From Candidatus Bathyarchaeota archaeon (GTDB lineage: Archaea; Thermoproteota; Bathyarchaeia; 40CM-2-53-6; RBG-13-38-9): DNA of 64,000 nt. Shown here piece after piece: positions 1 to 64,000 of this stretch; the first letter of the stretch is position 1, and each line of letters opens with the position of its first letter. Below the pieces are notes generated by a model. The model did not search any database, was not told the DNA's origin, and saw only the letters and a program-made list of their open reading frames with translations. The stretch lies in the NCBI GenBank assembly GCA_963807605.1, contig CAWECG010000003.1, positions 448,377 to 512,376 of the forward strand, written 5' to 3'. Position numbers and translations under genes: made by a program.

Positions 1-210
1 TACAACAGAGATCCCTAGGCGCGACATATTGGAGAGTATCTTAGCCACCGTCAGATGATGGTAAGTCAAAGTAATTGGCATCAAAGAGCAATAGGTTACT
101 ATGTCCTCGCCTGAACGTATTGTGTTGGATATTTGCTCTGAAAGATCCTTTTTATTGACGTTCAGGGAAAGATTATCGAATAGCTTCTCTATTTCACTAG
201 CGCTGGTCAT
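1..210 (-). CDS. partial hypothetical protein (5' part; runs off window start)
   Basis: Minus-strand ATG at 210..208 opens a frame that stays open to position 1 (70 codons; MTSASEIEKLFDNLS...). No recognisable motif. Confidence 0.3.
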   Translation of the reverse strand, partial: MTSASEIEKLFDNLSLNVNKKDLSEQISNTIRSGEDIVTYCSLMPITLTYHHLTVAKILSNMSRLGISVV

Positions 211-444
211 ATTGTCTTTCCACTCTTACTATTGACGATAAGCTGGGAGTTATTGAAGTTCTCGCCTGGAATACCAAATCTGTGGAATCGAGATTCGCGA
301 TTTCGCGAAGTCAGTTTTTGACATGTATCTTGGGGCCATTATATAGCTGGACACCATCCTGCGTCCAAGGAGTAAGACACTAAGGAGGGCGTGATGAAAA
401 ACCGCTCCTGTGTGTCTTCATAATAAACCTAGGCTGGGACGCAA

Positions 445-1080
445 TTGAGAAAAATGGAACGTATACTATCAATTGTGGGGATTTCCATAATTCTGATAGG
501 AACACTTGTTCTTGCAAGTTTCCTTGGATTTGAGAGTACAGTGGAGCAGGTATTCGACGATGTTCTATTTGATGAGGTTCACAGAGAACTGGCTCAGTTT
601 GCATTTACGTTAACGTCAAAAGGAGCGTTCACAACTAATTATCCGATCCATGTCAGAGTTCGAGTTCTCATAATCGAGAAACAGGTTATGGAAATGCTAC
701 CTATCCAGGTGGTGTTTCCTAATGCCTGTGAGTACCCTCGTAGAGTCGTGACCCCCTTAGAAATACCAGCCGTAGCTCGAGTATCTATTAGCAACATCTC
801 TCCATATTGTGGAGAGGCATATATGGAGTTTACCTACTCGGGAACCTTTGGCTACATGATCTTCTTAAAAGATAACCCACTATGCGAGACTGTTCGCCAG
901 AAGATAATCACGGTGTCCCCTTATGAAGTGCGACTGCAAATTGACAATGTTAGAAGACAGCTAGGGATAGGTATAGTTGCTCTCGGCATAGCGATCACGA
1001 AAACGAAGATCATAGTACATTACCACAGTCATAAGGTAGTCTATATCACGCGCCAAGAGGAATTTTGTACGAGGCTCTGA
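445..1080 (+). CDS. hypothetical membrane-anchored protein
   Basis: 211-aa ORF with a hydrophobic N-terminal helix (ILSIVGISIILIGTLVLASFLG) and a second hydrophobic stretch near the C-terminus. No family motif recognised. Confidence 0.4.
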   Translation: MRKMERILSIVGISIILIGTLVLASFLGFESTVEQVFDDVLFDEVHRELAQFAFTLTSKGAFTTNYPIHVRVRVLIIEKQVMEMLPIQVVFPNACEYPRRVVTPLEIPAVARVSISNISPYCGEAYMEFTYSGTFGYMIFLKDNPLCETVRQKIITVSPYEVRLQIDNVRRQLGIGIVALGIAITKTKIIVHYHSHKVVYITRQEEFCTRL

Positions 1081-2183
1081 GAACCAAGAATCTTAACCTA
1101 AAGGCATACTCAACACGATTTCCAACAGACAATACTCATTTGAAGCAGAGGCAATAGCTTACACAATATCCAAACACTTTGGCATAAATTTAAATTCGGA
1201 TACCTACCTGGCCATATGGCAAAAAGAACCAAAGAAAATCATTGAGAGTTTTGAGCGGATGCATGGTGTGGTAAACAAGATCATAACAGAAGTGGAGCAG
1301 ACAGAAACACGGCAGATACTCACCGTCACCCGCTAAGAGATCAAAAAGATATGACTATAACGGCATATGGAACAGAAGAAGACGCAACAAAAGAGACAGA
1401 AAAGATAAAGAAACTATACCCCAAAGCCAAACTCCTCGCCCCATCCCAATACGTGTGGATACGCATGATTGCCAAGCATTTGGAATAAGATCCTTTGAAG
1501 GTGAGGAGTTGGAGCAGGGCGAGATCCGCTACATACTAGCAGCCTCAACAGAAGAAGCAACAAACTGGAATCTCAAGAGTAAATTATTATAAGGAATGAA
1601 ACGCATTTTTTTTATGCTGATTTTTTTCAAATTTCTATATATCTACCTATTTATCTAACATATCATCTTACAATTTCCTGCAGTAGTAGGACATTCAAAC
1701 ACCCTATACACACCCCACATATGTAGTACCTTACATTCACAGAAACGGTGGGGGTGGGTATGGCGGTTCTGGTAGCTAGGTGCTGTCCTAATTGGTGACT
1801 TGCATCGTCAGTTGTGTATCATGGTGTCTCTCAAATCTCCCGTTCTTGCCCAGTTCCTTCGCTATTCATTTAATCTCTTCAACGATTTCTTTCTTAGTTG
1901 TCGTTCCCTCGCCTCCTAAACAAGGACTAGCACAAGAGCTCAGTAAATGATTCTCGGACGATTCCACTAATCTTGCTTCATTATGAACGCACACTTTGCC
2001 TTAGCCGTTGAGCATAGCAGAGACTCTCGAATTCTTCGTCGGTCAGTTGATCCCATTCTAGCACACTTGATCCGACCTATCGTGACCGTCGTGGTACCTT
2101 GAATGTACTTCCTAGTACGCGCACTATGGAATAAATAGCTATATTACCAAAATGAGTAAGGAGTCCTTACATAAGGGATAGTC

Positions 2184-2696
2184 GTGTCGTCACTTCGTGT
2201 TATGATATTCATAGACGGTTCAAATCTATTCAAAGCATCAGAACGATATAGAACGGGGTATCGCCCTGACCTGGCGAAACTCCAAGATAAGTTGGTCAAG
2301 GGTCGAACGTTGATGAGAACCTATTACTACTGCTCAATAGCTAATCCACCAAGAATTGAGCAGATCAAGTTTCAAGATAAATTGAAAAATCTACACATCC
2401 AAGTGGTTTCTAAGTCTCTCAAAAATCGTCCTACTGGTGAAAAGGTTGAAAAGGGGGTCGATGTTGCACTTGTGACTGACATGCTTAGCCTTGCGTTTCG
2501 TAATGCGTATGATGTAGCCATTTTGGTCAGCGGCGATAGCGACTTCCTTCAAACGGTGAATGAAGTCAAACGAGCTGGCAAAAGAGTTGAAATAGCTTCA
2601 TTCAGGTTCACTATAGGCAAGGAGTTACAAACGGAAGCTGACGATTTCATTCCAATTGAACCAATAGCCGATGAGATAGCACTTGAGCGAGGCTAA
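2184..2696 (+). CDS. NYN/LabA-like (PIN-fold) domain protein
   Basis: Translation has the NYN/LabA signature: IFIDGSNL near the N-terminus, GVDVALVTDM, and ILVSGDSDF (the acidic catalytic-site motifs of the DUF88/NYN fold). Confidence 0.7.
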   Translation: MSSLRVMIFIDGSNLFKASERYRTGYRPDLAKLQDKLVKGRTLMRTYYYCSIANPPRIEQIKFQDKLKNLHIQVVSKSLKNRPTGEKVEKGVDVALVTDMLSLAFRNAYDVAILVSGDSDFLQTVNEVKRAGKRVEIASFRFTIGKELQTEADDFIPIEPIADEIALERG

Positions 2697-3434
2697 GTTT
2701 GATGGTGGCTACACACGCGTAAAACGCAAATTATAATAATACGTAAGATAAGGTAATGTGTACATCACAACCTAGCAGTAGGTGGGGATTACCCCTAGTG
2801 ACGGGAAACCGTCAACCAACTGCTTAATTTGACTTATGTGGTGGGGTATTAGTACTCTCCCCAAGGATTGAAAGCGGTTCTTGGGGGAGGGGTGTACGGG
2901 CAACCTGCACCTTACACCCACCGCACTTGTTCTAAGACCTAAACATGAGCACTTCACAGGCTTTCAATTTTGAAAATGTAGTCTTCTTTGTTGCATGTAT
3001 AGGTCTTGCCGCATCGGGGACACTTTTCTTGAATGTTTTGTAACGTTGCGGTTTTGAAGGAAGCGTAGTCCATCTGCATTATTGAAGGATGCATAAATCG
3101 GCATTCTGATACCTTGCATATTGCCAGTAAAGGCATAACGAGCATCGCTAGTACTGCTTTGTACTACTTCTACCTGCAGTATCGTCATGATGTTTTGCAT
3201 AACCTCTATTTCATGTTAAAGTTACTTTAGTCTTCAATGTATTGTGACACTCTCCTAAGCGTAACACAGCCAATGAACGTCTAGCAAGCGAGATCTACAA
3301 GGGATCCTGACCGTTATAATTTCCAGTATATCGAGCTCCAGTTATCCCAACCTTTCAGTTTCAATAATCCTATTATTAATCTTGCATATCTCAATGCAAG
3401 CAATGTTTCCAAAAAAGGAGCTTTTCTGTCTTTC

Positions 3435-3623
3435 TTATCCTAGAGTCACGACCTTACCGCAGTTACTACATTTCAATAAGAGGATCTCATACTGGACTCC
3501 ACTAGCGGGGATTCTGGTTTGGTCAGCGGTATATAGTGGTAGCATCATGGCGTCTTTTGTCTCTTCTTTCTTAGCACAATCAGGGCAGGGAGGATAATGC
3601 TCGAAACTCAGACTGATTGACAT
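3435..3623 (-). CDS. putative small zinc-ribbon protein
   Basis: 62-aa ORF with CPDC ... CSNCG, i.e. a four-Cys ribbon spacing. Very short and in an ORF-poor region, so speculative. Confidence 0.25.
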   Translation of the reverse strand: MSISLSFEHYPPCPDCAKKEETKDAMMLPLYTADQTRIPASGVQYEILLLKCSNCGKVVTLG

Positions 3624-3951
3624 AGCAACTCACTAGTCTATTTTCCATTATCCCTAGAAAACTATGGGTCAACGTTATTTGGTGGTGGATAATGGGTGAG
3701 CGCATCTTAATTTGGACACATTCATAACCTTAGACCCTAGATATCCTAGCATTCAAAACCTTAGAACCTAACCAAATTGGCTGTCTGAGTGTAAATTGGT
3801 GCGCGAATCCCACTCCCCGCACCAATACGCGCCTGCGTGTTGACGCAAGCCCGCGCGTATGTCGGCAAGATTGGCTCGGGATTTCACGGCAGTCATACAA
3901 AGAAATCGTGGCGACGCCGCTGAAGCTGCACGACAATTATACAATTAAGAT

Positions 3952-4224
3952 TCAAGTACGTGTCAAAGAGGAAGTTCCGTGAGCGATTCTTGGAGAAGGC
4001 TCATGCAATCTATCTTTTACTTTACTATCGAGTTCTAAAGTGGCCTTCTCGTGATGGGTCGTGACAGGAATTTTGATTGTGTTGTCGGGTTCGGTCTGGA
4101 TATGTCTGATACTTCGAAGGGCACTTGTGAAATGTGCTTTTCTACAGACATCGCAGTATCTTAAGCCTCTGCTCGTCTTTCTTCCGCAATCAACACATTT
4201 CTCAGATACGTCCAGCATCAACAA
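3952..4224 (-). CDS. putative small zinc-ribbon protein
   Basis: 90-aa ORF with CVDCG ... YCDVC (C-x2-C ... C-x2-C). Speculative. Confidence 0.25.
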   Translation of the reverse strand: MLMLDVSEKCVDCGRKTSRGLRYCDVCRKAHFTSALRSIRHIQTEPDNTIKIPVTTHHEKATLELDSKVKDRLHEPSPRIAHGTSSLTRT

Positions 4225-5571
4225 CTCACCAACGATTTACGATACGGGAAGCAGAATAACCGCTGAGAGCAAAACTATCCCACAAAACCGTTATCCCTTC
4301 AAAACATTATGTCATGAAGTTAGTTAAGAGCCATCATATAAAACCATTGTCACCTAGGCGTCTCGAACTCGGTTACACTAGACTCCTCCGGTCGTCCTCT
4401 TGACCGCAAAATTAACTAACCGTCTGGTTTTCATGCTCGCATTTCGATTTGCAGATTTACAGACTAATGAAAATCGATCTCTCTTGGTAAGACCTTGATC
4501 TAAACCTTCTTGACTATGGATATCATAGTAAGTCAGCAGAAAGATGGAGCAACGGTAACAGTCGATTCAAAGCCCAAAGTCTGGTATAATCTTTCTGGAT
4601 CGGAACGGGCTAAAAGAAACGCAGAGGCTCTACTTGACGAATTAGATAAACAAGTATGATGAAGGCCCATCCCACAATCCCCCTCTACAGAATGCTATCG
4701 TCGGTTCTGTCAAGTCTACGTCGGTTGACAGATGCTGTAAAAATACGTCGGGTGGCGATGGGTGTTGCACCCGAAAGGGCTCTGTTAAGTTGGCGGTTGC
4801 CTGTTCAGGCTGTTAAGTTTCGGTTGATGGCAAAGGGTTAATTTCTTCGATTGGACAAATATTTTGTCTCTTCTTGCACCAAGCTTTTCCCTCTTCCGCT
4901 AGTTTTTTCTGCACTTCAAATGATAAACCAGCCAATACGGGTATCTCTAAACTTGGGCATGACACTTCAGGTATTAATGAACCTCTGACCTCCTTTCTCG
5001 GTTTCTCGACCCGCCTGTATTTTCCATCTGACCCTTTCCTTTGTGTTATGACAAGCTCATCTGGGTCAAAGAATTTTGTTGTTATTTCATCTACCCCAGT
5101 TATTGGGCAAATTTTCCTGATAATTTTAGCAAATTTTTCTGTTGATTTAAGCCCATAGCGAATTTTACCCATTACTCATTCCCCCCATATTCTTTGGTTC
5201 TGTTAAGTCTTCATAATGGAAGCTTTAATCCTTGAAGCTTCATCCTCTTATCTAAGTATTCTAGGTTAGGTTTGAATTTTGCATCCGTCGCAAGAGTACA
5301 AAACTTCGAATGGTTGGCTAGTTATGATAAGGCTAGAAATAGGCAAACTTGTGCGTCTAAAAACATATACCGACACTGACGAGCCAATCTATTGGGCCAA
5401 CAATCAAAGAGTTTTCCGATTGAAGAAAGCCTAGTTTGGCTCTATGTAGTCTGCGTCGGATCGATTGGGCTGTAAAAAATCGTCGGATAGAGTCACATTT
5501 CTTATGGTAGATAGTTTATGGCAGATTCGTGAACAAAGTCGGTTGAGATGTAGACCCTTAGTTATTGGCTT

Positions 5572-5997
5572 TCAAACCTTGAGTTCGTCAGAAGTTAGCT
5601 GAGTTTTCTTTCCCCAGAGGGCTTTCCTCATTTCGGTTAATGTCTTCCAATAACTGGCAGGTGAGGGATTTGCCATAAAGGATTTCACCGCTTGAAGAAC
5701 CTCATCGGGAGCGAAAAGAACCATACGAGAGTATTCGGCGAAGAGCGTGTTTTGAATATCCTTCTTGGTCTTGATATTATAGGTTTGAAGCACATCGACT
5801 GGTAAATGGTCAATTTGGTTGGGGTACAACAAGACCTGCATATAGATAGGCACAGATCGGAAGCGACTTACCCTCTCTTCGAACTCAGCAAGTTGGGTCT
5901 GGGTTCGACGTCTGAAAAACTCCGAGAAATATGCGCCGACTATTCCCCCTACGCCGAGTCCTGTTAGTAGTGTAAGTACCAACCCATTATCTACCAA
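5572..5997 (-). CDS. hypothetical protein with N-terminal TM anchor
   Basis: 141 aa with an N-terminal hydrophobic helix (LVLTLLTGLGVGGIVGAYF) followed by a charged soluble region. No motif recognised. Confidence 0.4.
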   Translation of the reverse strand: MVDNGLVLTLLTGLGVGGIVGAYFSEFFRRRTQTQLAEFEERVSRFRSVPIYMQVLLYPNQIDHLPVDVLQTYNIKTKKDIQNTLFAEYSRMVLFAPDEVLQAVKSFMANPSPASYWKTLTEMRKALWGKKTQLTSDELKV

Positions 5998-6060
5998 GAG
6001 ACTCCAAATTCAATTCTTACTGACGATATTTATGGTTAATGGCGAGAAGAAACTTAAGAT

Positions 6061-6214
6061 GCACTCACCAGCTATGTCACACACAGACAAAAAAATCAAT
6101 ACCTAACGGTTAAAATTCAGATGCTCTCACCAAGGGACACAGAAAAATAGCTCGCTCTAACGGTTCAAATCCATGTGATCTCACCAGCTAAGGCGCACAT
6201 ACTTTTTTTTAAGG
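6061..6214 (+). repeat. tandem array of three ~53-nt units of a dispersed repeat family
   Basis: Units start near 6061, 6111 and 6165 and share the core (g)atgc(a/t)ctcaccag.. ..cacaca plus acggtt(a/c)aaat(t/c)ca. The third unit is followed by a T8 run. Confidence 0.7.
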
Positions 6215-6217
6215 AAG

Positions 6218-6406
6218 TTGCTTGTCCCTATTCTAGGGAAGTCTGCAATGGAACTTGATTTGGATTCATGGGAACAACGAGTCGCGAATCCAAAGGCGTT
6301 GGGTGATGCAGGGAAGACTCTGTGGAAGAAAATACAACCTGTTCTCAACGACGTTTTGGATGAGATAAAAAAGAACGGGAGAATTAACAATTTACGTAAA
6401 AGCTGA
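6218..6406 (+). CDS. small hypothetical protein (62 aa) abutting the downstream ORF
   Basis: Its stop TGA is immediately followed by the ATG of 6408..6926 in the +1 frame. It may be a partner protein or the N-terminal part of a frameshifted gene. Confidence 0.3.
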   Translation: MLVPILGKSAMELDLDSWEQRVANPKALGDAGKTLWKKIQPVLNDVLDEIKKNGRINNLRKS

Positions 6407-6407
6407 G

Positions 6408-6926
6408 ATGGACAGACTCAGTGGCCCAATCAAAATGCTTGAAGAAATAACCGCAACTTACAACACGGTAATCCATATCTTTGAGAGACCGCAGGAAGAG
6501 CGGTTGCGATTCTTCCAGGCAATCCAACCATTCGGTTTCGAAGAAGCTAGTGTGACCCGCATGCATCTAACGTTGGCGGTAGCGATCACTGTTCTTTCAA
6601 CAGAACTCTTCAAGCTAGTTCTGCTATTTCATATGAAAGATGTAAGCCCTGATGTCTCAAAATTCAATATCACAATGCAAAGTTCTGCTCCCAAAACTTG
6701 GCCGCTGCTCAAGCTTTTCGTTGACAATGATTTTCGCAACGCCTTAGCGCACGGTACGTACGCTATTGTCAACAAGAAGATTGTCCTCTACAGGGATACA
6801 ACGCTGATTCCATTTGAGGAAATGGAGCTTCACGAGTTCATGATGAGGAGCAAAGATCAGAATGTGCTGTTTCACTGCCTCTTCAATGTCTTAGCGGCTA
6901 AGAAAAGATTGGGCTTCTTCACTTGA
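6408..6926 (+). CDS. hypothetical protein with HEPN-like Rx4HG motif
   Basis: 172 aa, predicted mostly helical. Contains DNDFRNALAHGTY (R-x4-H-G..Y), which resembles the HEPN/HepT ribonuclease active-site motif R(N)xxxH.Y. Confidence 0.45.
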   Translation: MDRLSGPIKMLEEITATYNTVIHIFERPQEERLRFFQAIQPFGFEEASVTRMHLTLAVAITVLSTELFKLVLLFHMKDVSPDVSKFNITMQSSAPKTWPLLKLFVDNDFRNALAHGTYAIVNKKIVLYRDTTLIPFEEMELHEFMMRSKDQNVLFHCLFNVLAAKKRLGFFT

Positions 6927-6997
6927 TCAGTTCGATTAACTAGACTTAGATCCGAAGTATGTGACTTCTGCGAGCGTAGCGAGCCATTAGATTATGA

Positions 6998-7088
6998 TTT
7001 GTGTGTGTGCCATAGCTGGTGAGCACACACAATTAACCTGCTCCAACGGTTCAAATTACGATGCTCTCACCAGCTAAGTTGACAAAAG
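6998..7088. repeat. two copies of the dispersed repeat in inverted orientation (palindromic unit plus tRNA-T-loop-like unit)
   Basis: 6998-7033 'ttgtgtgtgtgccatagctggtgagcacacacaat' is a near-perfect hairpin version. 7045-7088 'aacggttcaaattacgatgctctcaccagctaagttgac' is the direct-orientation unit. Confidence 0.7.
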
Positions 7089-7143
7089 TTAAAAGACTCG
7101 AGCAGTAGATCATTAGTCTTAGATGAGTTTGTGAGGTGATAAG

Positions 7144-7515
7144 ATGCCAAAAATGGAAGTAAAGAGTCTGAATTCTCCGGATGAAGTGAGAACTTTCGAG
7201 AAGGGGAAGCTGGAACTTGTAAGTATTGGAGGAGCAACGGTTGTGCGTTATACACTGGAACCTGGGTGGCGATGGTCTAAACACGTCAAGCCAGTAGCGA
7301 AGACCGAGAGTTGTGAGGCTCCACATTTTGAATATCACGTCTCAGGAATTATGCATGTTGTGATGGATGATGGTACAGAAAGAGACGTGAAAGCTGGTGA
7401 AGTCTCCTCAATTCCGCCAGGACACGATGGTTGGGTTGTTGGAAACGAACCTGCGGTCGTAGTTGATTTCCAAGGATTGGTCGATTACGCCAAGCAGCCA
7501 CCAAGAAATAAGTAG
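7144..7515 (+). CDS. cupin-domain protein
   Basis: 123 aa; the beta-strand-rich core with HxH-like residues (EYHVSGIMHVVMDDGTE ... PPGHDGWVV) fits the small cupin_2 barrel. Confidence 0.6.
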   Translation: MPKMEVKSLNSPDEVRTFEKGKLELVSIGGATVVRYTLEPGWRWSKHVKPVAKTESCEAPHFEYHVSGIMHVVMDDGTERDVKAGEVSSIPPGHDGWVVGNEPAVVVDFQGLVDYAKQPPRNK

Positions 7516-7543
7516 CATTCCAAAACCATTTTTTTGTGTCCCT

Positions 7544-7578
7544 TTGTGTGTGTGCCCTAGCTGGTGAGCACACAATGG
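7544..7578 (-). repeat. palindromic copy of the dispersed repeat
   Basis: 'ttgtgtgtgtgccctagctggtgagcacacaatgg' is the reverse complement of the core ctcaccagcta.ggcacacaca and can fold as an 8-9-bp stem hairpin. Confidence 0.7.
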
Positions 7579-7582
7579 ATTC

Positions 7583-8152
7583 CTAGACGTTATCGCGGTA
7601 ATTCCATACCTTCCGAAGAGTTTCCATATATTCTCGGTCTGCGTTTGGATAGAACTCTTCAAGCCTTTTCCATTTCTCGCGCATTTGGGTGACGTCAAGC
7701 ATCCAGTAGGCGTCCTTCATGCTGATTTCTGATGTACTTACGATGAGTCTCACGAGATACTCCTTGAACGATCCCTTCGCGCTCAAATAGCGTTCACTTG
7801 TGCCGAATATCAGATCAGCTATTTCATTTATGGAATTACTTGCTTCAAATGCGAACCATAACAGGGTTAATCCTTTGGGGTCAAATTGCGAGTAGTTCAA
7901 CTGTCCCCATTCCTGATAGTATCTGCTGACAATTTCAGGATGAATCTTCTCCTGAATCACGACATCAATTAGTGACTTGCCACTCTTGAAGAGTCTAAAC
8001 AGCCTTGATGCTAGCTCGCCGTTTAACTCAGAGCTGACTGTCCTTACTTCATCCTCGCTATTGGTGCTGAGGGATTGCGGCTTGAGTGTCCTGTGTATTG
8101 TTGTGATGGAAGAATTTGTTACCTTTGCTATGACTCTATAGCTCATCTTCAA
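7583..8152 (-). CDS. hypothetical protein with N-terminal HTH-like segment
   Basis: 189 aa; the N-terminus YRVIAKVTNSSITTIHRTL looks like a helix-turn-helix. The rest is unassigned. Confidence 0.4.
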   Translation of the reverse strand: MKMSYRVIAKVTNSSITTIHRTLKPQSLSTNSEDEVRTVSSELNGELASRLFRLFKSGKSLIDVVIQEKIHPEIVSRYYQEWGQLNYSQFDPKGLTLLWFAFEASNSINEIADLIFGTSERYLSAKGSFKEYLVRLIVSTSEISMKDAYWMLDVTQMREKWKRLEEFYPNADREYMETLRKVWNYRDNV

Positions 8153-57154: not shown

Positions 57155-58129
57155 CTAGAAGCTCGCTGTCTTTTCCAGTGCTGTCATAATCTTTTCCACG
57201 TCTGGAAGATAATAGTTCTCCAGCTTGAAGAGTGGAAAAGGAACATCTAGGCCTGTGACCCGCGCAATCGGGGCCTCTAAACTTAGAAAGACTTTCTCGT
57301 TGATGAGCGCGGTGATCTCAGCACCGAGCCCGCACGTCTTAGGCGCTTCATGGACGATTACGGCTCTTCCTGTCTTCTCAACGGATTTGACCACGGTTTC
57401 GCTATCTAAAGGTGAGAGAGTGCGAAGGTCAATGACCTCTACGCTGATCTTATTTCCTTCCTTCTCAGCAGCTTCCAGAGAAGGTCGCATCATTGCGCCC
57501 CAAGAGATCACTGTGACGTCGCTGCCCTCTCGAACTACCTTTGCCTTGCCGAGTGGTACGACGTAATCTTCCTCAGGTACATCGCCCCTGACTGCGCGGT
57601 AAATTCTCTTCGGTTCCATGAAGATTACGGGGTCAGGGTCTCTGATGGCTGAGATGAGTAGGCCTTTCGTATCGAATGGTGTCGACGGTGTTGTGACTTT
57701 GATACCTGGAGTATGGACGAGATACGCTTCAGGGCTGTCGGAATGGTGTTCGGGCGGGCGTATCCCTCCGCCGTACGGAACTCTAACTACAAGTGGTACG
57801 TGGAATCTCCCGCGAGAACGGTTTCTTATCTTTCCAGCATGGGATATGATCTGGTCCAGTGCGGGGTATAGGAAACCCTCGAACTGAATCTCTGCCACTG
57901 GCCTCAGGCCGTATAACGCCAAGCCTATTGCGACACCCACTATTCCAATTTCGGAGAGTGGTGTATCTATCACTCTGTTCTCTCCAAATTCGTCTACCAG
58001 GCCTTCAGTCGCTCTGAAGACTCCGCCGTTTCTCCCTACGTCCTCTCCCAAGATCAGGACATTTGGGTCTCTCGTCATCTCTTGCTGGAGGGCGGACTTT
58101 ACGGCTTGGACGATATTCAGCTCAGCCAT
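57155..58129 (-). CDS. 2-oxoacid dehydrogenase E1 component beta subunit
   Basis: The transketolase-like beta subunit begins at MAELNIVQAVKSALQQEM.. (about 58129), overlapping E1-alpha by 8 nt. The track ORF (to 58312) adds ~60 implausible residues read through the alpha gene. Confidence 0.85.
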   Translation of the reverse strand: MAELNIVQAVKSALQQEMTRDPNVLILGEDVGRNGGVFRATEGLVDEFGENRVIDTPLSEIGIVGVAIGLALYGLRPVAEIQFEGFLYPALDQIISHAGKIRNRSRGRFHVPLVVRVPYGGGIRPPEHHSDSPEAYLVHTPGIKVTTPSTPFDTKGLLISAIRDPDPVIFMEPKRIYRAVRGDVPEEDYVVPLGKAKVVREGSDVTVISWGAMMRPSLEAAEKEGNKISVEVIDLRTLSPLDSETVVKSVEKTGRAVIVHEAPKTCGLGAEITALINEKVFLSLEAPIARVTGLDVPFPLFKLENYYLPDVEKIMTALEKTASF

Positions 58130-59207
58130 TTCGCTCGACTCCTCTGGATCGCAAGAGTTCTTCGTACTGTGTCTTGAGGTGTGGTGGCAACTCGGCGTAC
58201 GTCCAGACGAAGAGGTCTTTGATCTCTTGAGGAGTAATGGATTCTGCCTTCTGGACGGCTTGTTGAACCTTTGCCATGGCTTCTGCTTGGACTCTCTTTT
58301 CGTACTCCTCATTCCAGAGTCCCTTGTGCTGCAGATACTTGCGTAACCTATCTACTGGATCTCGTTTGATCCATGCTTCCAACTCTTCCTTTGGCCTGTA
58401 TCTTGACGCGTCATCGGAGGTTGTATGGTCGGCTATTCTGTAGGTGACACACTCGATCATTGTGGGACCTTTGCCTGACCGGGCTTTCTCTAGAGCCTCT
58501 TTGGTAGCCTTGTACACGGCGAACACATCATTCCCATCAATTTGGATTCCTTCGAAGCCGTAAGCCAGCGCTTTCTGAGCTAACGTTTGCGAAGCAGTCT
58601 GTCGGCTTCTAGGGACCGATATTGCCCACTGATTATTCTCACATACGAAGACTATTGGTACCTTGAAGGTTCCGGCGAAATTAGAGCCTTCGTGAAAATC
58701 TCCTTTGGATGTTGCTCCGTCTCCAAGATAGACTAGGACCGCTTTTCGATCTCCTTTAAGTTTGGCGGCCCAGGCGAAACCGACTGCGTGAGGAATTTGG
58801 GTTCCCACGGGAACGGCGACGGTGAAGGCGTTAATGTTTTCTGGAATCTTATTCCCTCTTTCATCTCCGCCCCAATATTCATAGAGCATCTCCATCGGCA
58901 AACCCATGGCGATATATGCAGGATTTTCTCTAAACGATGGAAACATCCAGTCAGAACTCTCGAGAGCATACACGCTTGCCACCTGAGCAGCTTCCTGCCC
59001 CCTGGCTGAAGCATAGGTTCCGATCCTGCCTTCACGCTGCAACTTTACAGCAACATCATCGAAGGTTCTGGATAAGATCATCAATTCAAAAATTTCCTTG
59101 ATCTGGCTGTCAGATAGGTCAGGCTTCAGCGCTTCGTCACAATTTCCCTCCTCGTCAAGAATCTTCAAAATGGGAACATCGAATCTTGTGACAATCTCTC
59201 GTGGCAT
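58122..59207 (-). CDS. 2-oxoacid dehydrogenase E1 component alpha subunit (TPP-dependent)
   Basis: 361 aa with a TPP motif (GDGATSKGDFHEGSNFA ... ENNQWAIS) and a phosphorylation-loop-like region (YRIADHTTSDD). Confidence 0.85.
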   Translation of the reverse strand: MPREIVTRFDVPILKILDEEGNCDEALKPDLSDSQIKEIFELMILSRTFDDVAVKLQREGRIGTYASARGQEAAQVASVYALESSDWMFPSFRENPAYIAMGLPMEMLYEYWGGDERGNKIPENINAFTVAVPVGTQIPHAVGFAWAAKLKGDRKAVLVYLGDGATSKGDFHEGSNFAGTFKVPIVFVCENNQWAISVPRSRQTASQTLAQKALAYGFEGIQIDGNDVFAVYKATKEALEKARSGKGPTMIECVTYRIADHTTSDDASRYRPKEELEAWIKRDPVDRLRKYLQHKGLWNEEYEKRVQAEAMAKVQQAVQKAESITPQEIKDLFVWTYAELPPHLKTQYEELLRSRGVERNG

Positions 59208-59579: not shown

Positions 59580-60205
59580 TCATTCTACCATCCTGTAACA
59601 CTTACCGCCCTCTAACAAATAATTTAGAATCCGCAAACTGATAAATGTGAATTTCTAAAAAATATTCACGGCTTTCGGCTTGGTGCCAGAATGGCGGTAA
59701 CGTACTGATTTCGTGAGTCTGCTGTCTGAGATTTCTTGATCGACCTTAGAAAGAGGTAAACTGTAAAAAAAGGAGAGATCCTACGAGAGGGAACGAATAC
59801 ATTGACTAGAGTGAAGTCGGATCGCAAAGATTCTCTTTCTTCGCTGCTACACGACCACAAACCTTGCATATGAACTGAGCATTCTTGACGAGGTCTCTAA
59901 CTTCACCGACATCATACGTGTCTGACCAAATCTTGCATAGGTGGTTCTCATGTCCAACATGTGGCAACTTAACCATGGTTTTCTACATCCTGTGTTTATG
60001 CAGGTACGTATCGAGTTTTTGTCTACTTAAGTTTAGCTCCAAACTCGCCATTTTTTGGGCATCAGAAGTAGGCGGTAATACAAAACTTCCAAAGAAGAGG
60101 GGCGCGCGAGTAATCTCAAGAGCGCGCGCTTAGTCAGCGGAATGACTGCTGATTGGACACAGATGTAGACGCAGTGGTCAACCTTTTTTTGGATGATCTT
60201 CCTAA

Positions 60206-61108
60206 TTGATCTTGTTTAAGCAGTCTAACCTCTTCGTTAGATGCTCCTCAAGTGGATCTGAGGATTCTGTAATGCAAGAATTCGCTGGGCTTCATGAGAA
60301 GGTCTCAAAAAGTCCCTACACTCTTACGTTTGATGATGGACGCACTCTCATACTTCATGAAAATGCCGAGCCCGGTAGCGGAGATTCATCCCCCTTGCAG
60401 AAAGGCCTCATCATGCTTGTTAAGGGTCGACCTGTATGTGGTGAAGGCGTTGGATTTGGAGTTCCTGCACTGGAGTATCCGGGAAAGGTTTTCTTTTCCA
60501 CATCTGCCAAGGTCGAAGCCAGAGATGACGAGTTAATAAAGTACTTCTCGATTGACGCTTTCTCAAGAAAGGCTTGGAAGGAAAGATATCCCATAGAGAA
60601 CGGGATATACTCAGCTATACAAAGCAGACTGGCTAAGAGGTATCAGACTGACAAGAATAATCGTTCTCTGCTAACCAGTTTGATGAAACTCCAACATCTT
60701 CTAGGAGTTAAGTTATCTTTTCAGAGGGTCACGCCAAGAGGGATAGTCAAGATCACCTATCAACTGGCTGGAAATAAAGTGAAGGTTCGAGTTGATTGTT
60801 CGAAGATCGCAGACGAAATTCCTGAGAGACTTCTGATTTTCAACGAACAATCAAGCGATTTTAATCTCTACGAAGACTGTTTCGAGAAGTTGACAAACGA
60901 TCAGATAGGAGTGTGGGAGCTGGTGCACAGTGAAAGAGCGTGTCTAACCAATAGCTATGCAGAAACAACCTTGTGTGTTGAGGCTATTCCTGGAGCAGAG
61001 TTGTACAGGGGACGAGAACTTCTAAGGCCACGTTTGGACTGGTCCGGCTTTTGTTACGCAATTCCCTCCTTCGATCAAAGTTTCTGCTATACAATCAAGA
61101 TCACTTAG
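60206..61108 (+). CDS. hypothetical protein (300 aa)
   Basis: No recognisable motif. Its stop is 1 nt before the start of the radical-SAM gene, so the two are probably co-transcribed. Confidence 0.4.
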   Translation: MILFKQSNLFVRCSSSGSEDSVMQEFAGLHEKVSKSPYTLTFDDGRTLILHENAEPGSGDSSPLQKGLIMLVKGRPVCGEGVGFGVPALEYPGKVFFSTSAKVEARDDELIKYFSIDAFSRKAWKERYPIENGIYSAIQSRLAKRYQTDKNNRSLLTSLMKLQHLLGVKLSFQRVTPRGIVKITYQLAGNKVKVRVDCSKIADEIPERLLIFNEQSSDFNLYEDCFEKLTNDQIGVWELVHSERACLTNSYAETTLCVEAIPGAELYRGRELLRPRLDWSGFCYAIPSFDQSFCYTIKIT

Positions 61109-61109
61109 C

Positions 61110-62468
61110 GTGACCCTGTTGATCGATGTTCTCCTTATCTACCCTTTTCAGAGAACGAGATTCGATAGATCGCCGTTCAGGTTTCCACCATTAGGTATAG
61201 GTTACATAGCCTCTGTTCTTCAGCAACGAGGGTTCAAAGTAGATGTACTAGATTGTACATTTCAAGATGAAAACGATCTACTTGATCAAATTGAAGGATC
61301 AAAGCCCAAGATAATTGGTATCTATTCCATGTACTCGATGGAGAGAGAAAGCATCTCACTTGCAAGAAAGATCAAGCATACGGCCGATCTCTTGGTCGCG
61401 GGGGGGCCTCTCCCGACTATTAATCCCAAGATTTTCCTAGACGATTTCGACATCGCGGTTGTTGGTGAGGCGGAAGTGACTATGCTTGAGATCGTTGAAG
61501 ACTTTTTTGATCATAAAGAGCCAAAGAAAGTCAATGGAATCGTATTCAAGGACAATTTTGGAATTCAACATACACCGAAGAGGGAACATATAGTAGATCT
61601 TGATTTGATTCCCTTTCCTGCGAGAGAGCTTTTCGATAATGACGCCTACAGGGAATATTATCAGAAGAGCTTTGGATATACCATGACTTCGATGATATCC
61701 TCTAGAGGTTGCCCTTTCAAATGCGATTTCTGCAGTAGGCCTGTCTTTGGGGAGAGTTTCCGATCGAGGTCCGCGACTAATATCGTTGACGAAATGGAGT
61801 TGGTATCTAAGCTAGGGTACGATTCAGTCTGGTTTGCAGATGATTGCTTCACAGTGTCTAAAGATCGCGTTATTAAAATATGTGACGAGATTATTCGCCG
61901 AGATCTACGAATCAACTGGGAATGTCTCTCAAGGGTGGACACACGAGATCCTGAGATGTTTTTAGTAATGAAAAAGGCTGGATGCAGAAAAATATTTTTT
62001 GGGGTAGAGTCGGGCGATGAAAGAATCCTGAAGTTGATGAAAAAGAATGTGGATATCCGGGCTGCAAGAGAGGCAATTTACAACGCAAGTTCTGCGGGCA
62101 TTGGTACCGGCGCTTTCTTCATGATAGGTTACCCAGGAGAGAGCAATGACACCATTCTCAACACCATAAGATTTGGAACCACCCTTCCGTTAGACTATCT
62201 TTCATTCACACTCCCCTATCCGATACCTGGAACTGGTCTCTATGATAAGGTGAAAGATGTCTTAAGAGCGCCCTCGAAAAAGAAGATCCGACTAGTAGAT
62301 CACGAGCTTCACTTCAAATCCGAATTCTCAGAATTCAAATTAAAATTTGCAATAGTTAAAGCTACTGTGCAGTTTAGAATCCGAAAGTATCTTGGTGATA
62401 GAGGATATAGTATAGTGGGAAGGCCCTTTGAAAAAATCTCAGATATGATATTCAGATCATTAGAATAA
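61110..62468 (+). CDS. B12-binding-domain radical SAM protein (class B)
   Basis: N-terminal cobalamin-binding Rossmann domain (IGYIASVLQQRGFKVDVLD ... IIGIYSMYSMERESISLARKIK ... LLVAGGP) followed by a radical-SAM CxxxCxxC (CPFKCDFC) and TIM-barrel motifs. Confidence 0.75.
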   Translation: MTLLIDVLLIYPFQRTRFDRSPFRFPPLGIGYIASVLQQRGFKVDVLDCTFQDENDLLDQIEGSKPKIIGIYSMYSMERESISLARKIKHTADLLVAGGPLPTINPKIFLDDFDIAVVGEAEVTMLEIVEDFFDHKEPKKVNGIVFKDNFGIQHTPKREHIVDLDLIPFPARELFDNDAYREYYQKSFGYTMTSMISSRGCPFKCDFCSRPVFGESFRSRSATNIVDEMELVSKLGYDSVWFADDCFTVSKDRVIKICDEIIRRDLRINWECLSRVDTRDPEMFLVMKKAGCRKIFFGVESGDERILKLMKKNVDIRAAREAIYNASSAGIGTGAFFMIGYPGESNDTILNTIRFGTTLPLDYLSFTLPYPIPGTGLYDKVKDVLRAPSKKKIRLVDHELHFKSEFSEFKLKFAIVKATVQFRIRKYLGDRGYSIVGRPFEKISDMIFRSLE

Positions 62469-62594
62469 CGAACATTCTTCTACGCGTACGACAAAGGGTC
62501 ACCTAAGTGTGAGAGGCCACAATATCTTGGGGCATCATTTACCGGAATCAATGATGAGATAAAGTATGATAAAGTAGCAGGGAATCGCGACGAA

Positions 62595-63860
62595 ATGATA
62601 TTTCGGCAAAAAATTCGAAAAGAGCGGCTTGTGTTCTGCGCACTCAGTTTGGCTCTCCAATCTGCAATTGGGTTGTTTTTGGGCCATCAGTATGATATGC
62701 AAATATTCTACGCAACAGGCTACGAGGTATTTAACGGAACCACGCCTTACGGTATTCTTCCAACAAGTTCGATATTTAACCGCCCAGATTTTATAGGCTT
62801 AGTTCCAAGCATTGGGTATCCCCCTCCTTGGGCACTTTATCTTGGAGTTATTTATGGCGCAGTATATTTACCGACAAAAAACATATTTGCGTATAATCTT
62901 GCAATAAAACTGCCAAGCATCATTAGCAACATCGCTTTAGCCTTCTTGGCAGAGCAAATAGCAATTCAGGAAGGTCTTGACAGAAAGACCTCTAACAAGG
63001 TGTTCTATGTTCTTCTCTTTAATCCATTTATGATCTACATATCGGCGGCGTGGGGTCAATTTGATTCAATTGTAGTTCTAGCAACTGTTCTCGCTTTGAA
63101 TGAGCTATATCGTGGCAAAATCGGCATATCCTCAATTCTCATAGCTCTATCCATATCCTTGAAGATCATTCCGCTGATTCTGGTACCGATGTTTCTGCTT
63201 TTCATCATAAAGAATTACGGTTTGAAGTTCATATCAAAGTTCGTAGTGGGTTGCGTTGTTGCGTTTGCCACTTTTTCTTTTCTACCATTCAAGATCTTTG
63301 GTTGGGACCTTAGTTTCATTTTAAACAATTTGCAGGACCCATTTAGTAGAGCCGGGTGTTTTACTTTCTTTAACATTCTTGAATTGTTAAAAGATCGTGT
63401 TTCTCTTCCTCAAGAGTGGGCATTTTTGGGTTACCTGTGGATTCCAAGCCTAATTATCGGCTACTCTTGTCTTTCAAGGACTAGCCTGAATTCCAAGATG
63501 GATCTTTTCAGGTGGTCATCATCGATACTATTTGTTCTTATGCTCACAAGAAGCTGGGTTTCAGAGCAGAACGTTGTATTGTTGGTTCCAATGGTCATGC
63601 TTGTTTCAGTCATAGGTTTTGAGGGTTGGAAAATGTCACATCTCGTTTGGATAATTACTCTTATCTTCACTTTTCTCAATACAAGTCCGTTTCAGCTATT
63701 CTTCCTCGTATCGCCTAAACCGTATATCTGGATAAAAAGCCTAGACGAATCCTTTAGAACATCTAGACTCATCTTGAGATTTCTTGCGGTGATACCGTGG
63801 CAAATAGTAGGTTGGCATTATTTTAGGAGAACAATCAACGCGCGAAGGCTGTCTCTATGA
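62595..63860 (+). CDS. polytopic membrane protein, GT-C-like glycosyltransferase candidate
   Basis: 421 aa with 10 or more hydrophobic helices, large loops, and acidic residues in the first loop (YEVFNGTTPYG...RPDF). Resembles the DUF2029/GT-C mannosyltransferase-like topology but is unconfirmed. Confidence 0.4.
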   Translation: MIFRQKIRKERLVFCALSLALQSAIGLFLGHQYDMQIFYATGYEVFNGTTPYGILPTSSIFNRPDFIGLVPSIGYPPPWALYLGVIYGAVYLPTKNIFAYNLAIKLPSIISNIALAFLAEQIAIQEGLDRKTSNKVFYVLLFNPFMIYISAAWGQFDSIVVLATVLALNELYRGKIGISSILIALSISLKIIPLILVPMFLLFIIKNYGLKFISKFVVGCVVAFATFSFLPFKIFGWDLSFILNNLQDPFSRAGCFTFFNILELLKDRVSLPQEWAFLGYLWIPSLIIGYSCLSRTSLNSKMDLFRWSSSILFVLMLTRSWVSEQNVVLLVPMVMLVSVIGFEGWKMSHLVWIITLIFTFLNTSPFQLFFLVSPKPYIWIKSLDESFRTSRLILRFLAVIPWQIVGWHYFRRTINARRLSL

Positions 63861-64000
63861 CTTCCGTAGGAGGAGTTCCTTAAACGAAGCAGGAGAAAAC
63901 GCATAATCGTAAGGATCGGTAGTATGAACTGAGGCGGTCAATCATTTTGGCTAGGATCACAACACATTGGCTAGATGAAAAAGATTAACATGCTCGAATA

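Follow-up and report, generated by a model that had tools for sequence, protein, structure and literature searches.

Close to the end of a 64-kb stretch of DNA from a Candidatus Bathyarchaeota archaeon, the whole of which is called the window here, three adjacent genes encode a protein of an apparently new family, a B12-binding radical S-adenosylmethionine (SAM) enzyme and a membrane protein of GT-C fold. They are designated A, B and C, and related loci and related proteins from other genomes carry L and P numbers, respectively. All three plus-strand open reading frames (ORFs) reported in an earlier note on this DNA were recovered (Table 1). The module that they form was not found described in the curated families, solved structures or literature searched, and its three proteins very probably act together on a glycoconjugate.

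Table 1. Features of the A-B-C locus, with positions in the window
Feature	Positions	Strand	Description	Basis
Gene A	60272..61108	+	278 aa; longest ORF from TTG 60206	ORF list and length of P0121
Gene B	61110..62468	+	452 aa; class-B radical SAM	PF02310 and PF04055
Gene C	62595..63860	+	421 aa; polytopic, GT-C fold, glycosyltransferase-like	Structure model and Foldseek
CX3CX2C motif of B (C201, C205, C208; CPFKCDFC)	61710..61733	+		Script, within the PF04055 match
A/B junction	61106..61121	+	TAG 61106-61108, then GTG 61110 and TTG 61119 as starts
B-C spacer	62469..62594	+	126 nt

The earlier note had read A as a protein of 300 aa. The start of A lies most likely at ATG 60272 and not at TTG 60206, since the database protein P0121, which is 100% identical, is 278 aa long, and the relatives of A span 266-290 aa; the length was corrected to 278 aa. 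If B starts instead at TTG 61119, it is 449 aa long, the same length as the 94%-identical protein P0001. The spacing between A and B is tight with either start of B, which indicates translational coupling, as had been proposed. The gap between B and C is 126 nt in the window, compared to approximately 20-40 nt in the closest relatives (L005-L011). No hydrophobic segments were found in A or B, and the description of C as a polytopic membrane protein was borne out by its hydrophobicity and by the GT-C model.

Protein B was confirmed as a class-B radical SAM enzyme by two domain matches above their Pfam cut-offs, PF02310 (B12-binding; residues 21-128, 58.4 bits against a cut-off of 32.1) and PF04055 (Radical_SAM; residues 195-355, 91.2 bits against 29.5), together with a CX3CX2C motif, intact at residues 201-208, that forms the predicted [4Fe-4S]-binding site. 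Beyond this level, the NCBIfam scores of B were spread over families of different function, with 171.4 bits for PhpK, 158.6 for HpnJ, 151.1 for BchE, 142 for ApyD, 134 for the ladderane-type family, 123 for the methyl-coenzyme M reductase (MCR) glutamine methyltransferase and 115.5 for HpnR. Every score against a curated family was 3-5 times under its cut-off, including those for PhpK (TIGR04479, 600 bits), HpnJ (TIGR03471, 577.6 bits), BchE (TIGR02026, 481.35 bits) and HpnR (TIGR04367, 650 bits). Since the scores fell under all of the curated cut-offs, B is, as judged by the cut-offs of the tested families, a class-B radical SAM enzyme outside the described subfamilies. The closest solved structures by sequence were AprD4 (6fd2, 7e-25) and entry 9ccb (6e-19), which is linked to a publication about MgmA, the MCR glutamine methyltransferase.

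More than 100 homologues of B at 53-68% identity were found in Bathyarchaeia and Asgard archaea, and orthologues in bacteria and Methanoperedens were 41-48% identical. Many of these homologues are named 'anaerobic magnesium-protoporphyrin IX monomethyl ester cyclase' (BchE) by JGI. This label is not justified by a score of 151 bits against a cut-off of 481, and by this measure the naming amounts to systematic over-annotation. The statement in the earlier note that none of the three genes could be assigned from sequence alone stood for A, and for B past the superfamily level.

Protein A gave no match in Pfam or NCBIfam and none among PDB sequences, profile search included, and it has no transmembrane (TM) segment and no signal sequence. 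A HMMER scan of 1.84 billion representative proteins brought together a family of 637 relatives, most of which are stand-alone proteins of approximately 280 aa. The family is marked by the sharp motifs LQKGL, GEGVGFGVP, NEQG, IGxW, RGRE and WxGFxY, and its invariant residues include E58, G61, F62, G63, P65, N191, E192, Q193, W215, E249 and W257. Invariant Trp, Glu, Asn, Gln and Arg, as in A, are the usual make-up of sugar-binding sites. By these comparisons A is the one new protein family that the module contains.

The AlphaFold (AF2) model of A (pLDDT 89.4, pTM 0.88) is largely beta-strand with a single inserted helical hairpin. Nearly all of its Foldseek matches in the PDB were galactose-mutarotase-type beta-sandwiches, amongst them the aldose-1-epimerase-like proteins HI1317, Slr1438, YMR099c and LSEI_2598 and the equivalent domains of glycoside hydrolase families GH2, GH38, GH101 and GH31, polysaccharide lyase family PL33 and cellobiose phosphorylase (entries 1jov, 3k25, 2ciq and 3q1n are examples of the matches). 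In the one library searched, these matches had E-values of 6e-5 to about 1e-2 and a probability of about 1.0 with weak TM scores of 0.30-0.48. No invariant His was found in the family, the catalytic set of galactose mutarotase being His/Glu. With moderate confidence, A can be read as a beta-sandwich of the carbohydrate-enzyme type, and its probable role is that of a cytoplasmic partner of B that binds a sugar or presents the substrate. An assignment of A as an AttH-type hydratase was also considered and was ruled out by the Pfam result and by the fold, which differs from the AttH/CrtC fold that Hgs has.

Protein C stayed under the Pfam gathering cut-off of 25 bits with both GT87 (PF09594, 16.4 bits) and Alg6_Alg8 (PF03155, 20.1 bits), and some of its homologues carry precomputed matches to PF09594, PF26314 or PF03155. 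Its AF2 model was of high confidence (pLDDT 91.8, pTM 0.92) and was matched by Foldseek to ALG6 (TMq 0.70), the fungal glycosylphosphatidylinositol (GPI) mannosyltransferase I (0.67), PIG-U (0.60) and PimE (0.55-0.57), with STT3, ArnT and the Emb proteins lower in the list. A profile of C searched against PDB sequences reached GPI mannosyltransferase I at 4.6e-4 and ALG6 at 4e-3. The GT-C-like character given to C in the earlier note is thus upheld by the polytopic GT-C architecture seen in the matches of a confident model. C shares with ALG6, GPI mannosyltransferase I (PIG-M/Gpi14) and PimE the fold, an approximate size and a conserved Asp just after TM1, but its identity to them is only 13-15%.

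Residues H31 and D34 of C, directly after TM1 (residues 12-30), were conserved in at least 90% of 44 homologues, and W153, G154, D157, K190 and E324 were invariant, a conservation that argues for an active enzyme over a scaffold. D34 is likely the catalytic Asp, in a predicted first extracytoplasmic loop. Both termini of C are strongly positively charged, and both are predicted on this ground to be cytoplasmic. The donors of ALG6, GPI mannosyltransferase I and PimE are polyprenyl-phosphate sugars, and the matched ALG6 and GPI mannosyltransferase I entries contain bound dolichyl-phosphate glucose (Dol-P-Glc) or dolichyl-phosphate mannose (Dol-P-Man). That C may also use a polyprenyl-phosphate sugar donor is supported indirectly by the protein P0295, in which C is fused to a Dpm1-like glycosyltransferase of family 2 (GT2).

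When 185,579 species genomes were scanned with a pattern, 80 loci encoding A were obtained, and the genes around them were counted by tblastn and ORF clustering. B was directly downstream of A in 50 of the 80 loci, in each case with tight spacing (a gap of approximately 1-40 nt or a short overlap), and a reverse look-up from homologues of B found A directly upstream in all four cases (4/4). In the Asgard archaeon Freyarchaeum, where A is 32% identical, the gap between A and B is 1 nt as in the window. C was found within 6 kb of A in 38 loci, and both B and C accompanied A in 21. A GT2 glycosyltransferase occurred with A in 21 loci and at least two B12-binding radical SAM genes in 16, and only five of the 80 loci had none of B, C and GT2. 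The neighbourhood check called for in the earlier note thus found the A-B pair and its association with C to be kept across archaea and bacteria.

Most of the loci encoding A belong to Bathyarchaeia, and others were found in Asgard archaea (Atabeyarchaeum, LC30) and Methanoperedens. The bacterial loci include the isolate Longilinea arvoryzae KOME-1, other Anaerolineales/Chloroflexota and Thermoleophilia. Some further bins are labelled as bacterial (Acidoferrum, Limnocylindrales, Acidiferrales and Krumholzibacteriaceae; L015, L030/L064, L042, L047 and L054), and their gene content is Bathyarchaeia-like; the gene order of L015 is that of L013 and L014, and the genes upstream in L042 are those of L051 and L060. 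These contigs of soil metagenome-assembled genomes (MAGs) are probably mis-binned archaeal DNA, and for this reason only the loci of Anaerolineae/Chloroflexota and of Thermoleophilia were taken to define the bacterial range.

The order of the genes varies between these groups. It is A-B-C in the clade of the window (L005-L011), and in other Bathyarchaeia a DUF420-like gene is followed by A, B, a second radical SAM gene B' (485 aa), C and GT2. Anaerolineae/Chloroflexota, KOME-1 included, have GT2-C-A-B and then, on the opposite strand, a second B12-binding radical SAM gene whose product is 36% identical to B. Thermoleophilia loci have C-A-B with a second B12-binding radical SAM gene, and no GT2 was detected in them.

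Fusions between members of the module provided a further line of evidence. At least three proteins join C to A (L017, 706 aa; P0304, 714 aa; P0349, 751 aa), and P0369 consists of a Dpm1/ArnC-like GT2 joined to A without a membrane segment in between. The GT2 of P0369 is 54-56% identical to the Dpm1-like GT2 that is fused to C in P0295, and P0295 itself lies in an operon (L087) between a polytopic GT2 and A, with overlaps of 4 nt. L088 has, side by side, genes for B', a GT2, a protein of the GT87 family, a fused C-A and an orthologue of B. L080 unites a CelA-like polytopic GT2, a membrane region and A in one fusion; its middle membrane region had no Pfam match and no detectable similarity to C, and it was not counted as C. 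Other candidates were rejected after their translations were read, namely the 712-714-aa 'C-A fusions' of high-GC Thermoleophilia (L048, L075) and a 659-aa ORF in L082, all of which are wrong-frame or over-extended ORFs. A GT2 domain that depends on nucleotide sugars must be cytoplasmic. In the C-A fusions, A is attached to the positively charged C-terminus of C. The fusions thereby locate A in the cytoplasm, and with it this terminus of C, together with the radical SAM enzyme.

In many of these modules B is not the only B12-binding radical SAM enzyme. In Bathyarchaeia the second one is B' (485-499 aa), which shares approximately 30% identity with B and whose gene usually immediately precedes that of C, and in bacteria it is a protein termed B2 (approximately 438 aa, 33-37% identical), encoded on the opposite strand after B. 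Such loci include L038, L040, L043, L064/L030 and L088 as well as L062, L072, L075, L079 and L081; the window has B only. The recurrence of a second enzyme suggests that the full pathway may comprise two radical steps.

The earlier note had proposed a membrane lipid or glycan modification pathway. The part of this proposal that stood is that of one functional unit acting on a membrane-associated glycoconjugate, to which the conserved linkage, the C-A, GT2-A and C-GT2 fusions, the recurrent GT2 neighbours and the GT-C fold all point. For the form that this unit takes, a glycosylation system resembling Gtr and Arn, in which A and B would tailor a lipid-linked sugar in the cytoplasm before its transfer by C, is given close to, though not quite, an even chance. 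The more specific proposal that A and B are a two-protein radical SAM system that tailors a polyprenyl-phosphate-linked sugar before a GT-C enzyme installs it on the surface is tentative, and we regard it as possible rather than probable.

The domains and folds of B and C, the coupling of A to B, the association of A with C and with GT2 enzymes, and the cytoplasmic place of A are shown by the results above. What the system acts on, how B reacts, whether A holds a sugar and what receives the product are inferred, and we propose the following steps. A cytoplasmic GT2 would load a hexose onto polyprenyl (dolichyl) phosphate or another membrane lipid, and A would bind the sugar head group and present it to B at the cytoplasmic face of the membrane. 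B would then tailor the sugar by 5'-deoxyadenosyl-radical chemistry, which may be C-methylation or else epimerisation, deoxygenation or ring contraction. C-methylation is the commonest reaction of class-B radical SAM enzymes; not all members of the class methylate, AprD4 being an example. The modified lipid-linked sugar would next be flipped across the membrane, where C would transfer it to an extracytoplasmic acceptor such as a glycolipid, a lipoglycan or a surface glycan.

This scheme has parallels in known systems. In the GtrA/GtrB/Gtr glucosylation of O-antigen and the ArnC/ArnD/ArnT modification of lipid A, a cytoplasmic GT2 makes a polyprenyl-phosphate sugar that a GT-C enzyme transfers outside, and in Arn the lipid-linked sugar is deformylated by ArnD before it is flipped. 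The module resembles these systems in the GT-C fold of C and in the fusion of Dpm1/ArnC-like GT2 domains to C or A in its relatives. It differs from them in that a B12-binding radical SAM enzyme, together with a new beta-sandwich protein, would do the tailoring, in that no GtrA-type flippase was recognised, and in that the window is without the GT2 that is adjacent or fused in relatives. To our knowledge, no system of the Gtr/Arn type has a tailoring step of the B12-binding radical SAM kind. In mycobacteria, DprE1/DprE2 convert a sugar on polyprenyl phosphate that is then used by the GT-C arabinosyltransferases Emb and Aft. The proposed module would likewise convert a sugar on a lipid carrier ahead of a GT-C enzyme, but the DprE conversion is a flavin/NADH epimerisation and not radical SAM chemistry, and A and B have no sequence relationship to those enzymes. 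Class-B radical SAM enzymes that methylate unactivated sugar carbons are also known (GenK, GenD1 and MoeK5, the last of which acts on a lipid-linked saccharide). These share with B its enzyme class and a proposed action on sugars; they belong to antibiotic pathways, however, with neither a GT-C enzyme nor an A-type partner.

Several observations weigh against this interpretation. B is about equally far from the PhpK and HpnR methylases, the BchE cyclase, HpnJ with its putative ring contraction and the AprD4 dehydratase. The fold match of A is weak, with root-mean-square deviations of 7-13 A at the TM scores of 0.30-0.48 given above, and an A-like fold also occurs as a purely structural subunit (the 9grx match). 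In one Bathyarchaeia clade of A paralogues, C and GT2 are retained but the nearest 6 kb hold no B. The bacterial clusters have a polytopic GT2 that resembles CelA and PgaC, and this resemblance could mean a polymer synthase and not a lipid-sugar synthase. No GT2, flippase or second radical SAM gene was found within the 64-kb window, so that the GT2 and the flippase would have to be encoded elsewhere in the genome. Additionally, the literature searched held no precedent for the radical SAM tailoring of a polyprenyl-phosphate sugar; searches on the enzymes of butanetriol tetraether (BDGT) lipids, on radical SAM enzymes in the modification of archaeal N-glycan sugars, and on radical SAM enzymes combined with GT-C or polyprenyl-phosphate systems returned nothing specific.

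Other explanations of the locus start from the lipid. One is a head-group cyclitol pathway like that of HpnI/HpnJ or of calditol synthase (Cds), in which a GT2 would glycosylate a membrane lipid directly, B with the help of A would contract or rearrange the hexose ring into a cyclitol or a calditol-like group, and C would add sugars outside; it is a close variant of the scheme above. HpnJ is amongst the top curated matches of B and is the top match of its Longilinea orthologue (169.5 bits), and the polytopic GT2 neighbour has weak matches to HpnI and Glyco_transf_21. A precedent exists in the HpnI/HpnK/HpnJ and Cds systems, where the proposed substrate of the radical SAM enzyme is a hexose that a GT2 has put on a membrane lipid, ring contraction of the lipid-linked hexose being proposed for HpnJ and Cds (PMC13459092). 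Radical SAM action on a lipid-bound sugar would be common to them and the module. Nevertheless, the scores of B are 3-4 times under the HpnJ cut-off of 577.6 bits and are equalled by those for BchE and PhpK, no HpnK-type deacetylase was found amongst the conserved neighbours, and homologues of Cds occur mainly in organisms of acidic environments (PMC13459092), unlike the hosts of the module. The hpn and Cds systems in turn are without a GT-C enzyme or an A-type partner, and we consider a cyclitol pathway unlikely. Somewhat less likely again is a modification of the lipid core, by a ring synthase of glycerol dialkyl glycerol tetraethers (GDGT), a methylase of GDGT or of glycerol monoalkyl glycerol tetraethers (GMGT), or an enzyme pair of the Ted-Hgs type, with A as a second enzyme and C unrelated or accessory. 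Grs, Gmm and Ted are likewise B12-binding radical SAM enzymes. The Ted-Hgs pair of Bathyarchaeota, a tetraether desaturase and an AttH-like hydratase, is a close parallel in that the Ted gene also overlaps that of a partner of approximately 300 aa and in that the reported range of Ted overlaps with the Bathyarchaeia, Asgard archaea and Methanoperedens that carry the module (bioRxiv 10.1101/2025.10.20.683597). The marks of that pair, taken from the same report and compared by description, are an AttH/CrtC-type partner and a radical SAM protein of at least 500 aa, whereas A has no AttH/CrtC match and a mutarotase-type sandwich, and B is 452 aa long. The A-B-C module also reaches into bacteria, being found in Anaerolineae (with a cultured isolate) and Thermoleophilia, and is tied to glycosyltransferases. 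Bacteria such as Longilinea arvoryzae KOME-1 and the Thermoleophilia make no archaeal tetraethers, and their possession of the module argues indirectly against a GDGT-specific role. The fusions of A are to glycosyltransferases and not to lipid enzymes, and no Tes, Grs or GGR-type genes were seen amongst the conserved neighbours. A GDGT lipid-core role like that of Grs or Ted is thus unlikely. The lead given in the earlier note towards GDGT ring synthases and lipid modifiers of the calditol-synthase type was not sustained, as no curated cut-off was reached, tetraether-free bacteria carry the module, A is not the AttH-type hydratase of Ted and the companions of the pair are sugar-handling proteins.

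The GT2 neighbours bear on a further possibility, that of a synthase-dependent polysaccharide which a CelA/PgaC-like GT2 would polymerise and export and C would decorate, with A and B acting on a precursor or regulating the synthase. The polytopic GT2 of Longilinea is indeed closest to CelA (126 bits) and PgaC (92 bits) and has a QxxRW-type motif, and in L080 a CelA-like GT2 is joined to A. Those scores are far under the respective cut-offs of 699 and 422 bits, though, no such synthase adjoins A-B-C in the clade of the window, and the Dpm1-like GT2 fusions (P0295, P0369) indicate the formation of a polyprenyl-phosphate sugar; the polysaccharide explanation accordingly ranks below the two lipid-centred ones and is doubtful. 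That the three genes are unrelated neighbours brought together by chance is hardly credible. The 126-nt spacer between B and C and the many genomes in which C is not beside A-B would fit such an explanation, yet the adjacency is kept in distant genomes of both prokaryotic domains, in varied orders and with at least five independent fusions, which argues that it is not due to chance.

If the tailoring of a lipid-linked sugar by A and B ahead of C holds, this would be the first pathway to a lipid-linked sugar donor modified by a radical SAM enzyme, and it would be common to Bathyarchaeia, Asgard archaea, Methanoperedens, Chloroflexota and Thermoleophilia. It would add a radical tailoring step to the GT2, flippase and GT-C scheme of surface glycosylation and would assign to family A the role of an obligate radical SAM partner. 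An undescribed modified sugar would then be expected on the envelopes of Bathyarchaeia, Asgard archaea, Methanoperedens and the Chloroflexota and Thermoleophilia of soils and sediments, largely uncultured groups whose envelopes are barely characterised. Experiments are feasible, as the module is present in the cultured bacterium Longilinea arvoryzae KOME-1. More generally, an archaeal B12-binding radical SAM enzyme whose gene adjoins that of a membrane protein need not be a GDGT-modifying enzyme.

Some of the related loci had further features. A protein of approximately 140 aa with four TM segments is a frequent neighbour of A in archaea and bacteria and is not encoded in the window (examples are L043 5362-5796, L057 5358-5783, L062 9485-9952 on the minus strand, and L084 961-1371). 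Its H37 is invariant, its H82 is conserved in at least 90% of members, and 11 of 14 members have a weak similarity to DUF420 (PF04238); a flippase, or a redox or heme protein, would be guesses at its function. In the clade of A paralogues without B (L013-L025, L028, L029, L031, L034, L039 and L061), the next gene, in the place of B, encodes a PAS/histidine-kinase-like protein of approximately 550 aa. Both paralogues of A occur in a single supercluster on contig DATHCJ010000049 (L030/L064).

The nearest relative of the locus is a fully syntenic JGI metagenome contig of 31 kb (L001), whose proteins are 89-94% identical and which carries the archaeal markers eIF-6, prefoldin and L18Ae; the next relatives of A, B and C are all in Bathyarchaeia MAGs. 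Upstream of the module, L001 has a thioredoxin-like gene and an operon for 2-oxoacid dehydrogenase E1/E2, and downstream of it lie genes for 2-oxoacid:ferredoxin oxidoreductase. In other clades the module is not accompanied by these flanking genes. A gene for a polytopic membrane protein of approximately 220 aa with no Pfam match lies directly upstream of A in L001, L005, L006, L010 and L011. It left no tblastn trace in the window when positions 59580-60271 were compared with L001 7659-9153. From the thioredoxin-like gene to A, the window has a spacer approximately 800 nt shorter than that of L001, with short ORFs only. Inspection of positions 60100-60160 of this spacer by eye showed two short palindromes, rich in G+C and able to form hairpins (GCGCGC...GCGCGC, about 60102-60129; TCAGC...GCTGA, about 60134-60152). 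They could represent a terminator, or a regulatory element that stayed behind where the missing gene would lie.

Elsewhere, no tRNA gene and no Rfam match at the gathering threshold was found in the whole window. The 2-oxoacid dehydrogenase E1-beta ORF on the minus strand (57155-58312, 385 aa) carries a basic N-terminal extension, rich in Ser, whose coding sequence runs into the E1-alpha gene (58122-59207); as the E1-beta of L001 is called at 324 aa, the true start in the window is probably about 60 codons downstream. The G+C content is 0.40-0.45 across A, B and C (60001-64000) compared to 0.49 in the 8 kb upstream, and a similar low-G+C stretch lies at positions 1-8000 of the window. The low G+C over the cluster may reflect the composition of membrane-protein genes or a different evolutionary history.

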